A stretch of DNA of 63,643 nt, the filler included, from Globobulimina sp. (Eukaryota), in NCBI GenBank assembly GCA_003354225.1. It is 23 parts of 23 records of this genome, joined end to end, with 100 filler letters (N's around TTAATTAATTAA, not from the genome) between each part and the next. Parts side by side here need not be neighbours in the genome. Positions count along the whole stretch, not along the records: positions 36,046 to 38,716 come from PIVH01005429.1; 22 more parts are not named here. The stretch is one strand, 5' to 3'. The notes beneath the pieces are model-generated. The model worked only from the letters and a program-made list of their open reading frames with translations, was not told the DNA's origin and did no database searches. Shown piece after piece: positions 11,505 to 41,588 of the stretch; the stretch's first letter is position 1, and each line of letters begins with the position of its first letter. A program made the translations under genes and the position numbers.

Positions 11505-12263
11505 TCAAATAATTAAGTGCAAATTATCATTAAAACTCATGCCATTTATTTGACAATCAATGATTTGCATAGTTTGTCCGGCAGATTTCAATGACAAGGC
11601 TGGTACAATAGTTTGTGTTTTCAGTCCTAACTCAATCACTACCTTATCATTGTGCGAAAAAATGCAATTCATCGCATCAAAGTCAAATGCAAACGCATAT
11701 AGATCGCCAATGTTAAAGCCACCTTTTGATATATATCCATCAATGCATTTGTTATCATTTACATCATCATGACACCAGAATGTTCCATCGGGAGCATAAC
11801 AAAATATGCTCACTATATGTTTTCGAGCTTCATTCCTAAATTTAGAGCCAAAATACGTATTCCACTCTTTAATATTATCATAAACTAACTCCGACGATAA
11901 ATATCCAACATTAAAAGACTGTGCATAACAATTACTTTTTGCTGCTGTACTGACCAAAGAATATGTTATTTTAAATGTGTCACACATTTTATTTGTTATT
12001 GCCTTTTCACCAAATACACATATTCCCCAACAATCAGCCTTGTTTTGCACAGTTCTGTCATCAATAAATTGCAAACTATCACCATGTTTATTGGTATTGA
12101 ACCTAAATGGATTCTCATAATAAAATAAGAAAATAAGATGATTCAAAGAGGATGGTATTATTTTATCAACTGATAATTTACGAGATTCCTGTCGTATATA
12201 TCCATCTATGGCATATATAATCCTTTTATCAATGAATTGAAGTTTCTCCTTTGAAAGTGACAT
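11505..12263 (-). CDS. Hypothetical protein with SPRY/concanavalin-like C-terminal domain
   Basis: N-terminal IDGYIR..IIPSSLNHLIFLFY motif; C-terminal GDLYAFAFDFDAMNCIFSHND..IVPALSL is SPRY-like. Confidence 0.6.
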   Translation of the reverse strand: MSLSKEKLQFIDKRIIYAIDGYIRQESRKLSVDKIIPSSLNHLIFLFYYENPFRFNTNKHGDSLQFIDDRTVQNKADCWGICVFGEKAITNKMCDTFKITYSLVSTAAKSNCYAQSFNVGYLSSELVYDNIKEWNTYFGSKFRNEARKHIVSIFCYAPDGTFWCHDDVNDNKCIDGYISKGGFNIGDLYAFAFDFDAMNCIFSHNDKVVIELGLKTQTIVPALSLKSAGQTMQIIDCQINGMSFNDNLHLII

Positions 12264-12313
12264 TATTAGGTGACCTTTTCGACAAAAATCTTACTAGCAC
12301 TTTTAAAGATAAA

Positions 12314-13769
12314 ATGGATGCTTCCACAACGTACCTAAACGATATTTTTTCTCATTCAGTTACTGATGGAAGTAATCGTTTGCAGTATAACGAGGTTTTA
12401 GCATTATTTGCATCCCACAATCTTACAAAAAGTGACAAACAAAAAATATTACAACTATTCGACGCAAATAATGATGGTTATATTGATAAGAATGAGTTCC
12501 ATCATTTATTTACAAATTTAAATTGCCACTCTACAGATGATCTAATCAGAAAATCATATTTATACATAATTTTCAATCAAATAAATGTGGGAAACACTTC
12601 ATTGGATATAAAGAAATGGAAACAATTATTTGCAGAAGAAAATGTTGCGATGTCTGAATCGGAATTGTCACATTTAATCGACATAATTGATACAAATAAA
12701 GACGGAAATATTGATTTTTTCGAGTTTGAGCGTGCGTTCCATGACATTCTCAGTGTCGAGGACTTGATACAGAAATCGAGATTGTACGTTATATTCAATA
12801 ATATTGATACAAACAGTGGAGGCAGTTTAGAGTTTAACGAAATCAAAGAATTATTTCAAAGTGAACGCATAAATATGAATGATGACACATTAAAGCGTAT
12901 GATATCAACCATTGATAAAAACAATGATGGCCTGATCAGTTTCTCTGAGTTTGAAGCAGCATTCGATTGCGTTCAATCTATTCAAGAACTAGTAACAAAA
13001 TGGACTTCTTTGAGTGGAATAGACATTGGAACTGACTTATCATTTACTTCCGGTTTGGCACAAAACAAAGATTCCACCCATTCCAACTTCCCATTGTTGC
13101 CATTTATTGCTGGTGGATGTGGCGGCATTCTCTCCCGGACTGCAACAGCTCCATTGGAGAGAATAAAGATTTTAGCTCAAGTCGGTGCGACCACGTCCAT
13201 CAAAAACACATTCAAAACAATTGTGACAAACGAAGGTTTCTTTAAGGGGCTATGGAAAGGTAATTTTTATAATGTTTTGAGAGTGTTTCCGTTTGGAGGC
13301 ATCGTGTGTTTGTCGTACGGTGCAATGATGGAACAGATTAATAGATTGGATTTCAAATTTGATGATAAGATGCTAAATGTTTTTAGATTTGGTGCTGGAG
13401 TTATTGCCGGCGGCACTGCCACGACATTGACATATCCGTTGGATTTAATACGGACACAAGTTACTGTCTCGATTGGTAATAATAGGAATATAATGGAATA
13501 CAAACAATCTCTCAAGTCTTTGGATGGGATAACCAGTTTATACCGAGGTTTGTGGCCAACTTTATTCGCAATGAGTATTTTTGTTGGCTTACAACAATCG
13601 AGCTATGATTTTATGAGATTGTATGCGACATCGCCGGAATGTTTGAATATGAAACCTTCTATAAATTTGTCTGTAGGATGCAGTCTTTGTGCAGGTGTAT
13701 TGTCGCAAATTGCTGCTAAACCATTCGATGTAGTGAGGAGAAGCGTGCAAATAAAGAACACTGTGGTTA
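12314..13769 (+). CDS. Ca2+-binding mitochondrial carrier (SCaMC/ATP-Mg:Pi carrier-like), 3' partial
   Basis: EF-hands (DANNDGYIDKNEF, DTNKDGNIDFFEF, DKNNDGLISFSEF) followed by SLC25 repeats TAPLERIK, TYPLDLIR and KPFDVVR. Confidence 0.9.
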
Positions 13770-19668: not shown

Positions 19669-21363
19669 TTATGTTGGTTTACAACCACAACCACAAACAA
19701 AATCACTCCAAAATTCCCAACCAAATGGACATGCAATCCTTATCCTTTGACACGTCAAAACATCCCCTAAAAATGAATATCCTTCAGCAACACAGTCAGG
19801 TAAATTAATATCACATCTATGTTGACACTCTGCCAAACTAACGAAATTATTCCCATTTCCTCCACATCCGCCATACGTAAATTCCTCACAATTACCACTT
19901 TCTCCATTATAATAATATTTAATAAATGCAGCGTCACACGGACCAATTTCCTTTGCTAACAAACAAATATCAATATCACCATCACAGTCTTCAATCACAT
20001 CCCCTGCGGAATCAACAAAATATTCACTACAGCCACCACAAGCAGAAAACACACATTCCGCATCAGGATAAGCAGCACAAGTTGGTGCAAATTCATCATT
20101 GCAATAATCACGCCTTGGACAAGGTGCATAAAATGAACATTCATTACCGATCGGATCATAACACCGCCCATTTGATGCACATATATCATCATTTGGCGGT
20201 TTACATTTCTTCAAACATTCCCGATATAATTTCTGTGATTTTTTGTCAATTGACTTCCAGCCACAACTTCCTTTATTATCCACTCGCCCACATTGTTGAT
20301 AATGTAAGCATCCATATTCACATTTCCATCCACAATCTGAAGCCTGAATATCAGCGGCACAGATTTCTTTTGAGCAACCACTAATTTTACAATCCATAGA
20401 GCTTGCACAATATCCGTAGCCTGCACCCATACAATCATCAAATAGACATCGAGAGCAATCTTTCAATTCACAGTTTTTATCTAAACGAGCATTTAACGGA
20501 ATACATGTTTCATAATTATCGGTTGGTTTGTTACATATTAATCCTTTGCCGCAATCTTTATCGGTTGTGCTGTTTATTACAATTTCATTTTTTTGCATAA
20601 TTTACAGATAGTGCACAGACCATAATTGGTAATCATAGGAACACTTGCTTTTAGGTGCTTGTTTAATAAATTTTAAATAATTAAACGTATCCTGTTGATG
20701 AAGAACATTTGCATCACAAGCAATGGCATTGATACATCCAACACCTTCTTCCCAGAAAGGATATTGTTTTGGACAGGCACATTTCGAATTATTTTCTGCC
20801 TTTTCCAGCGATTTTAAAAATCTTGAATCGCATGTTGCAAATCCTGGAGCTTGGCTGAATCGCATGTTTAAATTATTTGTTTAACATATTTTGTTAATGT
20901 GGATGGATATTTGTTAATTAAAACGTTAGTCTGTAGGAGATCGAATTGGATCTAACTGTTACTAATGTTTTGATTAACAACGGTTAATATAACATACAAT
21001 GTGTCATATCGTAACCAGAATGAACCCTTTTGACATTTTCTACAAACTGGTGTCCCGGCCGCAAAACATGCTCCTTTTTGAATAGTATCGGTGGGCTGTA
21101 TTGAAAATTTGAAAAGAGTTTTTACATATAATGAGACACACTTTCTGTGCATACTACAGTTCCGGATTTACTATTTTGACAGCTACACTCATTGCAACCA
21201 TCATTATAATCCTTTAAATAATATTTGTGATGGTAATATTTTTACACATTGACATATGCAAATAACTTACCAAGCATTTTGGCGTTCCGCATGTTAATTC
21301 ATAAGGGATAGATGCTAATATTGACGTGCTGATAAAACTAAAGACGCATAATAACGGAAGCAT
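19669..21363 (-). CDS. Secreted Cys-rich mosaic protein with a Kunitz/BPTI domain; 5' half frameshifted (possible pseudogene)
   Basis: Signal peptide MLPLLCVFSFISTSILA; intron 21212-21270; DGCNECSC module; intact 3' ORF 19669-20598 with Kunitz CLLAKEIGPCDAAFIKYYYNGESGNCEEFTYGGCGGNGNNFVSLAECQHRC. Confidence 0.75.
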
Positions 21364-30502: not shown

Positions 30503-32473
30503 CTTCACCAGAAGATGGACCAAACCAATAAGCAATACCTTAAAAGTATAACAAAGCAAACCAAGGCTAATCAGAAATTACTTGCTACTTTTACAGATTA
30601 CAAATCAGCTGTGACAGCTGGTACCGCAGCGGTCAAAAAGTTATATGGGGCTATGGATGAATTAGCGGGTAGAGCGTCTGTAATGGATAAGCTCCAAAAA
30701 GCTAATGTGATATCTATTGGCGCGGCAAGGGAAGCAACAAAGGGTTATATTTCGGACGTCGAATTATTAAAAGCTGCTAACACTGCCAGCGCTTTTGGTA
30801 TGAAGTTTTCAGAAGAACAATTTGGCAAATTAGCTGAAGGTGCTGCCATCGCTGCTCAAGCCATAGGCGGTGATATGAATAACTCCGTAAATGACCTTAT
30901 CAAAGGTATCGGAAGACAGTCACGTCTCATCCTCGATAATCTGGGTATAATAGTTAACTCCACGGAATCATACAAGATTTACGGGGAGGAGATTGGCAAA
31001 ACAGTAGCCCAATTGACGGACGCAGAGAAGAAACAAGCGTTCATGAATGCCGCTCTTAAAGACCTTGAAAGATTGTCATCAAATGGGGCCCTTGCTATTA
31101 ATAGCGCTGCTGAATCTTTCAAGGTGCTGAAAAATGAAATAAACAACGCAATTGACAGCATGTCAGTGGTTATTTCTAAATCAGAATTCGCGATTTCTGT
31201 ATTTGAATCATTAAAAGAAAGAATTAGAGATGTGGGATTTGCTTTCAAGTGGTGGTCAGAGATTGGACAAGATAAGGGAACTTGGACTAAGGTTTTTAAT
31301 GAACGAAAAGAGTTAATGAAGCGTTTAGCTGAATTATCTGACAATCAGAGCCATATAGCAGGGTTAAAAAGGGCGAAAGTTGAGGCCCGTATTGCAATGC
31401 TCACGCGTCAATTGCAAGATATGAGATTTCAAAAAGCAGCAAAAACTTCACAAAAGATTCATGATAATGAATTAAAGATAGCAAAAAGTATGAATTCCGG
31501 TGCTCTTAAATTATATCAAGACCACTTGGAAGAGAAAAATAAAGCTGATAAAAAAGCCGGTAGAGGTAGAAGTAGGGGTAGAAGTAGAGATAGAGAGTCA
31601 ACCCCAGTTGACTTGACCGGGGCTTTTGGATTTGGCAAAACTGACCCATCACTAATGGGTGGAGTTGACCAATCTCAAACCATAGCAAATCAAACTGCCC
31701 AAATGGAACAAGCCAAAAACATGGAGGAGCTGTATGCTAGTGCTGTTTCCGCGACTTCCACAGCCAGGGCTGAATCAAATCTAAAACTTTCTGAGGCTAT
31801 GGAAACATTGAGTACATTGTCTATGAAAACCGCTGACATGGAAAGATACAATGCTGCTTTATTGCAAGGCGCTGATGCCACTGGTAAGTTAAGCAAAGCG
31901 CAAAAAGCAATAGTAGCTGATGCAGCGGCGGCAAAGAAAGTTATAGAAGAAATGGGCGATACTATGATGAGTATCGCAGAAACAGCGGTGGTTCAATTAG
32001 GACAAGGATTATATGGAATATTAGATAGTGTAATAGCGGGTGATGAAGGAATAGGCCAAGCCATGGTTAAATTGTTAGGTCAGATTACAAAGGGATTGTC
32101 AATGCAACTTTTTGCCAAGGGTATGGCCTCAATGTTTGAAGCTAATGCATTACAAGTAACCCCTTGGACTGCTGCTGCTGCTGCTGCATTGCGTGGTAGA
32201 GCTGCGGTTTATTTAGCTGGGGCAGCTGCATTAGGAGCCATAGGGTTAGGCACAACTGCATTAGGTGGGGCAATGAGTAAAAGTAATTCGGCAAAGGAAA
32301 GGGAACAATCTGATTCCAGGGAAAGTACTTCTGCTACAGCCCCTGCCTTCGGTAAAAAAATAGATAAGAGAGACCAGCCTATCAATATTAATTTATATCT
32401 CGGAGACCACGACGACCCTTCAGCTGCTCTAATGTTGCAAAAGCAGTTGACCGCCCAAATGAGTAAGGAATAA
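30503..32473 (+). CDS. Phage tail tape measure protein, 5' partial
   Basis: Ala-rich helical 650+ aa protein, intronless, with the motif KGIGRQSRLILDNLGI..LTDAEKKQA typical of tape measure proteins. Confidence 0.85.
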   Translation, partial: LHQKMDQTNKQYLKSITKQTKANQKLLATFTDYKSAVTAGTAAVKKLYGAMDELAGRASVMDKLQKANVISIGAAREATKGYISDVELLKAANTASAFGMKFSEEQFGKLAEGAAIAAQAIGGDMNNSVNDLIKGIGRQSRLILDNLGIIVNSTESYKIYGEEIGKTVAQLTDAEKKQAFMNAALKDLERLSSNGALAINSAAESFKVLKNEINNAIDSMSVVISKSEFAISVFESLKERIRDVGFAFKWWSEIGQDKGTWTKVFNERKELMKRLAELSDNQSHIAGLKRAKVEARIAMLTRQLQDMRFQKAAKTSQKIHDNELKIAKSMNSGALKLYQDHLEEKNKADKKAGRGRSRGRSRDRESTPVDLTGAFGFGKTDPSLMGGVDQSQTIANQTAQMEQAKNMEELYASAVSATSTARAESNLKLSEAMETLSTLSMKTADMERYNAALLQGADATGKLSKAQKAIVADAAAAKKVIEEMGDTMMSIAETAVVQLGQGLYGILDSVIAGDEGIGQAMVKLLGQITKGLSMQLFAKGMASMFEANALQVTPWTAAAAAALRGRAAVYLAGAAALGAIGLGTTALGGAMSKSNSAKEREQSDSRESTSATAPAFGKKIDKRDQPININLYLGDHDDPSAALMLQKQLTAQMSKE

Positions 32474-36045: not shown

Positions 36046-36676
36046 CAATTACTTTATCAGCTCCATCATGTCCCAACATACTGTTCAATGCCTTGAAATC
36101 ATCCAAATCAATCAAATACAAACAATAAGCCGCAAAGTTCCCGTTAACCACAATTTCATTTAATAAGGATCGAAGTGCGGCAGCTCGAGGTAGCCCACAC
36201 AACAAATCCAAAGATAGTGAGGGATTGATGGTTAATACGCGATTGATTATATTTCTTTTTTTTTCGTCAAATTGCCACAGGTTACGCACTTTGGATGCAT
36301 TTTGTTGTCCGCATTTCAAACAATATAAATGTTTGAATTTATCTTTTCTATCATTTCCAATCAAACATGAATTGCAAACCATTCTTTTCCGAACCACTTT
36401 CCAGTCATCTTCACATATCACACATTTGTCAGATTTACGCCATCCACCATCGGTTAAGAAATGTCCACATCGACACATTCCATTTAATTTGATATATCGC
36501 TTATTTTCAAAATCAATTAACGATGATAATGTGCATGAAGTGCTTTCTTTGTTTTCTTGCCTTTTCTCATCAGCCATCATATTGTCTTGAAATTCACCCA
36601 TTAATTCCCATAAACAGTCGTCAATGTTTACTCCGTTGGTTCCAAGTGTTGATAGTGTTGAACGAAGCAATTCCAT
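36046..36676 (-). CDS. Cys-rich N-terminus plus GGDEF (diguanylate cyclase-like) domain, 3' partial
   Basis: DLLCGLPR..YLIDLDDFKALNSMLGHDGADKVI matches the GGDEF N-half consensus DxLTGLxNR..hDhDxFKxhNDxxGHxxGDxhh. Upstream are CxC, CxxC, CxxC and CxxC motifs. Confidence 0.82.
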
Positions 36677-36809
36677 TGGTTTTTAAGAAGGAGCTGACTG
36701 AGCTGGATGTTGATTGTGGCAAACGATGTTGTGTGAGACGACAGTATTAACTTTAACTGATATCTAACTATATACTTTGTTATATAAAGAAGTTTTTTTT
36801 TGTGGTATA

Positions 36810-38716
36810 ATGATACAAGCCACACGTACAGCAACCAGAAAAGGCAGACAGAAAAAGAAACAACAAGCACAATTGCAACAAGCACAATTACAACAGAATA
36901 ACCATCATAGCCATGGAGCATCCCTACCACGCAAATCCGTACGCTATCGCGGATACAATAGAGCCGGCAAGAAAAGTCAACCTAACTCACCATCGCCATA
37001 TCATCACAACCATTTTGCCAGCAAACGGAATAAACGCAAATCCGTAGTATTTCGGCCCACTCATCACGGCCAATCTGCAGTCGCCATGGTCGAACATTCA
37101 GTGTTTCAACAAATTAACAATCCGACACTTTCAGCACAGATAAAATATCAACAATATAAACACAAACGTAGACAATCCGTAACTGCGGCGAGGAAAAAAA
37201 AAGGAAAAGATATGATCCGAAAAACAGTCGCAATGAACGCCCACCAACACCAACAAATGTTAGCTATGGTTAAACAACAAACCCTGGAATCTCCCGAACC
37301 GACTCATATTCCCTCATCACCGCCGCCGCATATTCACAATGACGGATTGCCGCCACCTAACAATGACAGTTAATTACTACGCCGTCTTTATCCTCGCACA
37401 CAACCACAACAACGCAAAAAACATTGTTTGTATACATTATAGGTTGGATTGACAGGGCTAAATCGCACCGGATGGCTCCCCATAAAATCAACACAAACAT
37501 CGAGAACAAATCGCGTGTTGGCAGCTCAGCGGTGACGCCCATCAATAAAAATGCGTTCATGCGCAGCAAATCGAGCCGTGGGACTTCGATGGGCGACGCA
37601 TTGGGTCTCAGTAAGAAAGAATTGGATGAGTACAAATCGCAAATCACAAATAACGATAAGAGGAATAGTATGTCATTTATGTCCCAGCAAAGCCTTAATG
37701 TCCACAATCAAAATACGAGCAATATCCAAGCGAATCAACTGTTTACTACACCACATTCGGTGGCGAGTCGGCGGCAAAGTTTACTGCGACCGGTTACTAA
37801 TAATAATAATGCCGTTATCCAGATGATTTTGATGGTATTTCAATCGCTGCCATCGCAGCAAAAAAAAGAATTGATGCATTTAATGAGTTTGCAATTAATG
37901 CAGCAAAGTGTTCCCAACGTCGCTGCATTGGCACAACAACAGAACAAAAGCAATTTGCCGAAGGCCTTAAGCAACGCGACAAATAAGGCGAATTTCTTAG
38001 GTATTTGTATATAATGTTATTTTTTTACACTGTGTTTTAAATGTTTTGTATGCTACGTTTCTGACAATAAACACAGAACAACTTAAAGAACCGTTGAAAG
38101 AGTCTAAATCTATCCCAATCAAAGAGAGTCCGACGGCCGCCGCTGGCAATAAATCGACATTCTCGCAGGTTGCCCGCGTGCATACCGACAGAGGCTCGCG
38201 TTCAGCAAACACGACACCAAAACTGAGAGCACAGACTCCTTTATTAAAGGTGCGATACGAAAGTACGCCCAAATTGATGCTGGATAACGACCACGACGAA
38301 CTATGTGAGATTAAAGAGGCCGATTCAATGAATTTAGAGCTAGAGCACAATAATCAAAATAGCAGCAATCGCAATGTATCGTGGAAGCCGACCACAAATA
38401 TCAAACTACCAACGGGCACTCCACAAATAGGCGGTGCTCTAACTACCGTGCAATCTGAATATGACTTCGATAATGTTACCGATGACAATCCATTGACGCC
38501 CAAAAGTACGGCCTCTGAGGAAGACGAAGACAAAGAGAGCATGTACATTGATGCGCAATTATCGCATGACATCGATATTTATCATAACATTGACGCACAG
38601 TTATTAGCGCCGGACAAAAAGGCCAAGAGTTATAGCAAGAAAATGGTGCATTTTAAAGAGGAAACCGAGGAATTGACCCATACTGAAAGTGTCTCGAAAG
38701 ACGTCATGCAGAGCGC
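36810..38716 (+). CDS. Low-complexity hypothetical protein, 3 exons (introns 37369-37442, 38001-38076), 3' partial
   Basis: Two GT..AG introns join ORFs 36777, 37424 and 38046 in correct phase. Confidence 0.75.
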
Positions 38717-41318: not shown

Positions 41319-41588
41319 ATTAAATAAAATTAGAATTGTTTAAATTTATAATAAATAAGTCGTTATAATATCTATTGACAATTTCAATTATTTCACATTT
41401 CTTTGTTATTTTTTGTAAATTAATTATATTTTGTATTTGCTTGGTTTTATGGTATTGATTTTCTTTAATAGCCACACATTGCGATCNNNNNNNNNNNNNN
41501 NNNNNNNNNNNNNNNNNNNNNNNNNNNNNNTTAATTAATTAANNNNNNNNNNNNNNNNNNNNNNNNNNNNNNNNNNNNNNNNNNNNCA

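Follow-up and report, generated by a model that had tools for sequence, protein, structure and literature searches.

Does a foraminifer carry genes of its own for making cyclic di-GMP (c-di-GMP), which is treated as a bacterial messenger? The question is raised by one open reading frame (ORF) in a 63,643-nucleotide stretch of DNA (the window) from the Globobulimina sp. assembly GCA_003354225.1. A preliminary description of the window had read this ORF as a eukaryote-encoded GGDEF (diguanylate cyclase) domain fused to a Cys-rich, zinc-finger-like region. This reading held: the junction between the two parts is spanned by further contigs, the closest relatives are foraminiferal, and those relatives keep the GGDEF motif. 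We consider it very likely that the ORF belongs to a genuine foraminiferal gene of the GGDEF family. We also consider it likely that the ORF represents the 5' part of a nuclear gene, transcribed in a foraminifer or one of its near relations, and that this gene belongs to a lineage-specific, much expanded family in which a helical hairpin, a two-zinc module and a stalk precede an entire GGDEF domain of bacterial type, forming an active dimeric diguanylate cyclase.

The window consists of 23 separate contigs of 2669–2674 nt each, sorted by length and joined by linkers of the form N44-ttaattaattaa-N44. Contigs facing each other across a linker need not be adjacent in the genome, and the GC content of the contigs ranges from 0.285 to 0.44. 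The contig of interest (positions 36046–38716, 2671 nt, PIVH01005429.1) has a GC content of 0.409 and carries the ORF at its left end, on the minus strand, running from 36676 to 36047 and encoding 210 amino acids. The ATG at 36676 lies two codons past an in-frame stop, and the frame stays open for 630 nt to 36047. The contig end cuts the ORF, with base 36046 left over as the first base of the next codon, and it does so upstream of the GG(D/E)EF motif, as had been cautioned before. The ORF has a GC content of 0.359, and 0.319 at third codon positions (GC3). These values agree with the AT-rich, host-like composition described earlier and lie within the range of the other eukaryote-like ORFs of the window. 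Its relative synonymous codon usage correlates at 0.46 with the pooled eukaryote-like ORFs, at 0.47 with a phage-like ORF elsewhere in the window and at 0.22 with the neighbouring gene. Codon usage does not separate the host from the phage-like contig and is uninformative for a gene of 210 codons.

The second part of the fragment resembles known cyclases. Residues 157–210 (DLLCGLPR...IDLDDFKALNSMLGHDGADKVI) are encoded at 36047–36208 in the same frame as the Cys motifs, as the preliminary description had it. The profile search proposed there returned a sub-threshold match, with these residues aligned to positions 4–59 of the 161 in the Pfam GGDEF profile (PF00990; E 3.4e-4, 20.8 bits). Thirteen of 15 NCBIfam matches are to models of GGDEF-containing cyclases or phosphodiesterases (best E 9.3e-7) and 11 of 16 matches to PDB sequences are GGDEF proteins. 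Language-model features of the fragment likewise point to GGDEF clusters. In the PDB alignments, D190, D192, K195, N198 and D207 fall on the corresponding residues of solved cyclases. The metal-binding D-x-D-x-F-K motif and the Asn/Asp pair claimed for the fragment are therefore present with the spacing of solved cyclases, the Asn 8 and the Asp 17 residues past the first Asp. The roles of these residues in metal and substrate binding are known from work on PleD.

The only sequence seen past the contig end is a 30-nt loose-end consensus from sequencing run X3. When its last base is placed at 36046, the frame continues from G-A-D-K-V-I into I-D-I-A-Q-I-L-K-E-H, and the relatives P0002 and P0003 have V-D-I-A-N-I-F-K-K-Y at the same place. 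Homology favours this frame-keeping register, and the placement is uncertain by one base. In the frame-keeping register the window has C at 36046 and X3 has T, which may be an error at the contig end.

To find relatives, the fragment was searched against protein collections. Word-index searches returned none among 85 candidates of near length and none among 686 of longer length. When phmmer was run exhaustively over 1.84 billion representatives, 85 proteins matched at E ≤ 1e-3, 28 of them at E ≤ 1e-10, the best being P0002 (E 2.1e-34, 44% identity over residues 8–210). About 52 of the 85 are family members, defined by a score of at least 55 bits against a family-specific GGDEF hidden Markov model (HMM) or by a match to the N-terminal part; one of them, P0074, is probably a low-complexity false match. 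The other 33 are mainly long, Asn/Lys-poor, bacterial-type GGDEF proteins that match residues 155–210 only, the best with about 40% identity over these residues and E values no better than 4.5e-8. About seven of the 33 are Asn/Lys-rich, show the zinc-module pattern and match in the N-terminal part. Thus the GGDEF part is not a near-identical copy of a bacterial sequence, an outcome that the preliminary description had named as fatal to its reading; its closest relatives (44% identity) are foraminiferal.

Taxonomic origins were looked up for 30 proteins. Fifteen come from Bolivina argentea, two from Nonionella stella, one from Elphidium margaritaceum and one from Globobulimina turgida, and both Bolivina and Elphidium are classified in Foraminifera. 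Seven more are family members from ENA, JGI or Logan contigs, and the remaining four, one of them from a Clostridia metagenome-assembled genome, lie outside the family. The same fusion, which we had been advised to seek in foraminiferal sequences, is present in about 50 relatives, the named ones from Bolivina, Nonionella, Elphidium and Globobulimina, all of them foraminifera, and these proteins sit unannotated in public sets. With such taxa among its nearest relatives, the window copy probably comes from a foraminifer or a close relation of one. When 15 family members were searched against the window with tblastn, 14 matched, and only at 36047–36682.

Alignments of the family revealed a shared order of parts: a helical hairpin, an acidic D-E-K linker, an S-x-L-x-D segment, a Cys/His module, a long helix, and P-x-L-x-L-D-L-L-C-G-L-P leading into the GGDEF domain (Table 1). 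The Cys/His module follows the pattern C-x3-(H/D)...C-x2-C...C-x2-C...C-x2-C-x3-N. In the window copy it reads C68-x3-H72, C85-x2-C88, C101-x2-C104, C119-x2-C122 and N126, the four pairs being the CRCGH, CVIC, CNSC and CLKC motifs that had been noted in frame with the GGDEF part. C104 is invariant among 32 sequences, and C85, C88, C101, C119, C122 and N126 are each kept in at least 90% of them. The eight ligands would be enough for two zinc ions. No Pfam zinc-finger family was matched by more than two of the 32 members. At E ≤ 10 the window fragment matched only GGDEF, PHF5 and Desmo_N among Pfam families, with neither TackOD1 nor CZB. TackOD1, a bacterial and archaeal zinc ribbon, was also not among the families matched by at least two of the 32 members.

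The GGDEF domain is well preserved across the family. The Pfam GGDEF profile matches 31 of 32 members at E ≤ 1, and all ten of the longer relatives that were scanned pass its cut-off, with 34–71 bits. The catalytic columns hold D in 49/51, D in 48/51, K in 48/51, N in 48/50, D in 43/50 (Asn in 6) and R in 38/41 sequences, and the loop holds G in 28/29, G in 27/29, D in 29/29, E in 27/29 and F in 24/28 (Y in 3, L in 1). The GG(D/E)EF motif whose recovery had been called for is thus kept almost always, as GGDE(F/Y/L), by the relatives that reach it; that of the window copy lies beyond the contig end. C160 (36197–36199) stands where the bacterial D-x-L-T-G-L has Thr, and most members have D-L-L-C-G-L here, a signature of the family. 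Reading the sequences by eye, we found no RxxD inhibitory site at its customary spacing ahead of the loop. In eleven gene models the sequence departs from the family right behind the F-R preceding the motif, in most cases with F-V... or C-V..., and one of them, P0021, resumes with QGGDEL after 19 residues. This divergence would fit a conserved phase-2 intron, starting GT(T/G)TGT, that was read through by the gene caller.

Several members carry additional domains. P0007 is fused to an E2 ubiquitin-conjugating domain (UQ_con), P0023 to PH and SPRY domains, and P0056 to a RanBP zinc ribbon, P0015 and P0035 have ankyrin repeats inserted in the zinc module, and in many members a large insert, specific to the lineage, separates the motif from the final strands. 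In P0055 the N-terminal helix, zinc module, stalk and a D-M-L-C-G-L helix lead into an acyltransferase domain (Acyl_transf_1, E 1.6e-20) where other members have GGDEF. The input module is therefore portable and shared between outputs.

Structure prediction was carried out for the longer relative P0017 and for the window fragment. The AlphaFold2 (AF2) model of P0017, built from a 35-row alignment, has a mean predicted local distance difference test score (pLDDT) of 89.7 and a predicted template modelling score (pTM) of 0.77, and shows a stalk helix followed by a GGDEF domain. Foldseek returned 122 PDB matches for this model at E ≤ 1e-3, and among the matches listed all are GGDEF proteins. Against the GGDEF domains of WspR, SadC, DgcB and PleD, the template modelling score (TM) on the target is about 0.7–0.8 with a root mean square deviation (rmsd) of 2.5–3.3 Å; for WspR, TM is 0.76 and rmsd 3.0 over 180 columns. 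Several of the fold matches (GCN4-WspR, DgcB, SiaD and PleD) include a coiled-coil stalk. The P0017 sequence itself also matches solved cyclases over the whole domain (E 3.8e-10). The 210 residues of the window copy, modelled from 32 rows, have a pLDDT of 80.1, with helices at 2–13, 18–38 and 120–150 and a small beta/helix zinc module. For the N-terminal and zinc part, Foldseek found no match at E ≤ 0.001; the best E was 1.2, and the weak rows (E 1.2–4) include the C1 domain 2e73 (E 2.6, TM 0.47 over 54 columns). The best VIA-align Z, 4.4, concerned the N-terminal hairpin only, and the language-model atlas gave no usable match for residues 1–150. In these comparisons the Cys/His module showed no clear resemblance to known zinc-finger folds (C1, PHF5, ZAD, LIM).

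As a homodimer, P0017 (15-row alignment) was predicted with an interface score (ipSAE) of 0.66, with runs between 0.65 and 0.67 and the best control at 0.00. The runs share at least 90% of their contacts, and partner pLDDT is at least 82. The predicted interface is symmetric and involves the N-terminal helices (residues 3–40), the zinc-module helix (105–113), the stalk (146–165) and GGDEF residues including 255–256 of the loop. In the model the equivalent of the S-x-L-x-D segment (62–68) docks on the partner's GGDEF domain, and the symmetric stalk contact has the least expected error.

These features suggest how the enzyme could work. Two chains would pair through their N-terminal helices, zinc module and stalk, bringing two GGDEF half-sites together. 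In each half-site the GGDEF loop, together with the conserved Asp, Lys, Asn and Asp, would hold GTP and Mg2+, and from two GTP the paired sites would make c-di-GMP. The enzyme would thus be a cytosolic homodimeric diguanylate cyclase that lacks RxxD product inhibition. Control would then come from the N-terminal module and from the domains fused in paralogues, given the absence of RxxD. A regulatory role for zinc is speculation. It is reasonably probable that the family makes c-di-GMP, and slightly less so that this copy does; for this copy a GGDEF motif, dimerisation, zinc binding and the product are putative.

The gene's residence in a eukaryotic genome was assessed by aligning contigs from the public sequencing runs X1, X2, X3 and X6 to the 2671-nt contig. 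A 1980-nt contig of X2, from an independent study of 2024, reaches 599 nt beyond the window contig on its left side, covers 36046–37368 without a joint, skips a 74-nt intron of the neighbouring gene and enters its exon 2. X3 has both spliced joints of this gene as well as contigs over 36046–36125 (reaching 186 nt further out) and 36096–36499. X1, from the same sample as X3, has the unspliced form of the neighbour and behaves as DNA. X6, from another organism and 90–95% alike, shows the neighbour in spliced form and covers the ORF with three contigs. The presence of spliced joints suggests that X2, X3 and X6 derive from RNA. The junction between the Cys-rich and GGDEF parts (about 36224), at which a chimera had been thought possible, is therefore spanned by contigs of three runs from two studies and is linked to an intron-bearing gene.

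The neighbour had been described as a gene with two spliceosomal introns, head-to-head with the ORF. Both introns are borne out: 37369–37442 (74 nt) and 38001–38076 (76 nt) have GT..AG ends and are skipped in spliced contigs. The head-to-head arrangement also stands, with start codons at 36676 and 36810 that lie 133 bp apart. In X6 the second intron is joined from 38000 to 38091, with GT..AA ends and eight other letters between, and the intron region has diverged. The neighbour matched no Pfam family at E ≤ 0.1 except for one weak DUF4364 row.

To examine the origin of the family, its domains were compared with other GGDEF domains. With the family-specific HMM, family domains score 105–260 bits and all others at most 61 bits. 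A quick maximum-likelihood tree was built from 19 family and 34 other GGDEF domains that extend from HMM position 13 or before to position 187 or beyond, leaving out 33 family members and the shorter of the others. The 19 family domains lie on one side of a long branch, apart from the 34 others, with a Shimodaira–Hasegawa-like approximate likelihood ratio test (SH-aLRT) support of 100. A profile search with the family alignment, over the best 8000 candidates, returned five family members and 61 bacterial-type GGDEF proteins at no more than 65 bits, and no donor emerged. This pattern fits a single old origin followed by expansion, with no donor named. The earlier proposal of a domesticated, horizontally acquired cyclase needs to be recast, since the family comprises about 50 clusters at 50% identity and not a single gene. 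The bacterial distribution of GGDEF domains suggests a horizontal origin, probably an ancient one, for which no donor can be put forward.

Some observations weigh against reading this locus as an active cyclase gene of a foraminifer. The fragment's 20.8 bits lie below the Pfam GGDEF gathering cut-off of 23.8, because the contig end leaves only a third of the domain. The GG(D/E)EF loop of the window copy is beyond that end, placing its own active site outside the sequence seen. Degenerate paralogues exist: D218 is Asn in 6 of 50 members and P0054 has G-D-D-A-F, so not every family member need be active. In calibration on microbial proteins, 20 of 30 solved homodimers reached the mark used for dimers, as did 1 of 23 single chains; the figures for eukaryotes are less good, and the high score may stem from solved GGDEF dimers already familiar to the predictor. 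The kinds of runs X1, X2, X3 and X6 are not on record, and a contig that crosses two genes shows no single transcript. Furthermore, benthic foraminiferal transcriptomes carry bacteria; composition, domain fusions and introns argue against a bacterial source here. Finally, if the X3 loose end is placed one base to the left, it gives a stop one codon past I210.

That stop would also suit the possibility that the ORF is a dead or truncated family copy, whether it is a pseudogene or a fragment left by the assembly. The sequence has no more than 210 codons, and decayed copies are to be expected in a large family. We regard this as very unlikely: the ORF is open for 630 nt from its ATG with all family-invariant residues intact, contigs of runs with spliced transcripts cover it and reach 186–599 nt further, a copy 90–95% alike occurs in another organism's run, and the extension in the other register matches the nearest relatives at conserved positions. 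Still less probable, to the point of being almost negligible, is that the contig is chimeric, its GGDEF part having been contributed by some bacterium or phage assembled along with the protist. The assembly does hold non-eukaryotic DNA, including the phage-like contig at 30503–33174, and the contig's GC content of 0.409 is above that of most others; the ORF's own, however, is 0.359. A single ORF spans the zinc module and the GGDEF domain, contigs of three runs from two studies cross the junction and link it to the intron-bearing gene, and the nearest bacterial-type matches cover residues 155–210 alone at E values no better than 4.5e-8. Together with the tree, in which 19 family domains separate from 34 others with an SH-aLRT of 100, the junction-spanning spliced contigs and foraminiferal relatives led us to reject contamination or a chimera.

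It is also conceivable, and we consider it unlikely but less so than these two, that the family is truly foraminiferal and has another function: it might make a different cyclic dinucleotide, mixed or otherwise, or a product that is linear, or it might act as a nucleotide-binding receptor. With its expansion and its variable, sensor-like fusions, it might serve in defence signalling and not in housekeeping signalling by a second messenger. Four of 32 members have weak matches to the Cas10/Cmr2 palm, the guanine-contacting Asp is replaced by Asn in the six members mentioned above, and the family is large, with SPRY, ankyrin, PH and E2 fusions. P0055 combines the N-terminal module with an acyltransferase, and the presence of the module need not therefore imply c-di-GMP. 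In characterised enzymes, the Asn/Asp pair and a full GGDEF loop go with the use of GTP; the window copy and most relatives keep the pair, and most relatives have the full loop. The whole domain moreover aligns with, and superposes on, bona fide cyclases. We therefore favour the reading as a diguanylate cyclase.

How does such a family compare with known systems? According to excerpts of two published accounts, DgcA of Dictyostelium discoideum was the earliest putative diguanylate cyclase to be found in eukaryotes (PMC4686194), and among eukaryotes only Dictyostelium makes and uses c-di-GMP (PMC10399225). In the passages found of a 2026 paper on archaeal GGDEF proteins, eukaryotic cyclases go unmentioned (PMC13725321). 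DgcA resembles the foraminiferal family in being a eukaryote-encoded GGDEF protein. It belongs to Amoebozoa whereas the family belongs to Foraminifera (Rhizaria), and the family has the N-terminal helix, zinc module and stalk. The excerpts also describe single genes in dictyostelid genomes (PMC4686194), in contrast to the roughly 50 clusters at 50% identity found here. Foraminifera are not known to use c-di-GMP, and our literature search returned no published link between foraminifera or Rhizaria and c-di-GMP or GGDEF; subscription journals, supplements and database annotations such as InterPro taxon tables were outside its scope, and the result is not proof of novelty.

Among bacterial enzymes, WspR, PleD, Caulobacter DgcB and SiaD also place GGDEF after a long helix (Foldseek with P0017: E 2.5e-11 to 1e-9, TM 0.67–0.77 on the target). 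They have in common with the foraminiferal family the GGDEF loop and the conserved residues for substrate and metal; stalk dimerisation is predicted for the family. Domain identity is only 20–28%, however, and the foraminiferal proteins have no receiver, PAS or GAF input, have D-L-L-C-G-L in place of D-x-L-T-G-L, lack RxxD and in many cases carry the large insert. The zinc-regulated Escherichia coli DgcZ (YdeH), which was among both the sequence and fold matches, has a metal-binding N-terminal module before GGDEF in a dimer, an arrangement that is predicted for the foraminiferal family too. The CZB domain of DgcZ is a helical bundle, whereas the foraminiferal family has no CZB Pfam match and its module consists of four Cys/His pairs in treble-clef or ribbon style. 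The catalytic domain is an ordinary GGDEF of an already known kind, and the novelty lies in the lineage, in the scale and in the architecture. The Cys/His module with its helix and stalk is a new candidate signalling input module.

Table 1. Features of the contig at 36046–38716, in coordinates of the window.
Feature	Coordinates	Strand	Evidence
5' part of the zinc-module/GGDEF gene, 210 codons	36047..36676	-	ORF translation; relatives align from their N-termini; RNA-derived contigs cover it without joints
N-terminal helical hairpin, residues 1–38, with conserved D-x-(Y/C)-L-W-E-L	36563..36676	-	AF2 helices 2–13 and 18–38; predicted in the dimer interface (P0017 residues 3–40)
S-x-L-x-D segment (S51, L53, D55) after the acidic D-E-K linker	36512..36526	-	S and L invariant or nearly so in the family alignment
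Cys/His module, residues 68–126	36299..36475	-	Conservation in 32 sequences
Long stalk helix, residues 127–151, from zinc module to GGDEF	36224..36298	-	AF2 helix 120–150; stalk plus GGDEF of P0017 superposes on the coiled-coil cyclases GCN4-WspR and DgcB
First third of the GGDEF domain, residues 152–210 (P152, D157-L-L-C-G-L-P-R, D190, D192, K195, N198, D207)	36047..36223	-	Pfam, NCBIfam and PDB matches
Divergent intergenic region, 133 bp between the two start codons	36677..36809	.	Covered collinearly by the 1980-nt X2 contig
Low-complexity neighbouring gene, exons 36810–37368, 37443–38000 and 38077–38716 (open at contig end)	36810..38716	+	Spliced joints in X2, X3 and X6; unspliced in X1

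Most of the other contigs in the window carry eukaryote-type genes, among them genes for MCM and an ABCA-type ATPase. Positions 12236–13769 encode a fusion of EF-hands and a mitochondrial carrier, of the calcium-regulated carrier type, and positions 19669–20601 a protein of secreted type that is rich in Cys and has a Kunitz domain (E 3.2e-18). An open reverse transcriptase ORF of 874 aa, of the non-long-terminal-repeat retrotransposon type (RVT_1, E 3e-40, and zf-RVT), takes up the contig at 41587–44256. On the contig at 30503–33174, a 656-aa ORF matches phrog_3779 (E 1.1e-12), a family of phage tail length tape measure proteins, and the next ORF has no PHROG match at E ≤ 0.001 and no Pfam match at E ≤ 1e-5. 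This contig is probably bacterial or phage DNA that was co-assembled with the protist.

Foraminifera are abundant marine protists that live among bacteria and feed on them. The single fragment studied here leads to dozens of foraminiferal GGDEF genes, probably intron-bearing and transcribed, with active-site residues largely intact and with eukaryotic domains fused to some of them. Whether foraminifera carry lineage-wide, massively expanded, competent diguanylate cyclases, wired to PH, E2, SPRY and ankyrin inputs through an undescribed two-zinc dimerisation module, is in our estimate evenly poised. If this is true, Dictyostelia would be joined by a second eukaryotic lineage, unrelated to them, that has c-di-GMP as its own messenger, and on a far larger scale. 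If the enzymes are active, the questions become what they sense and which receptors read the signal, and whether c-di-GMP serves within the foraminiferal cell or in communicating with, or manipulating, the bacteria that are its prey and symbionts.

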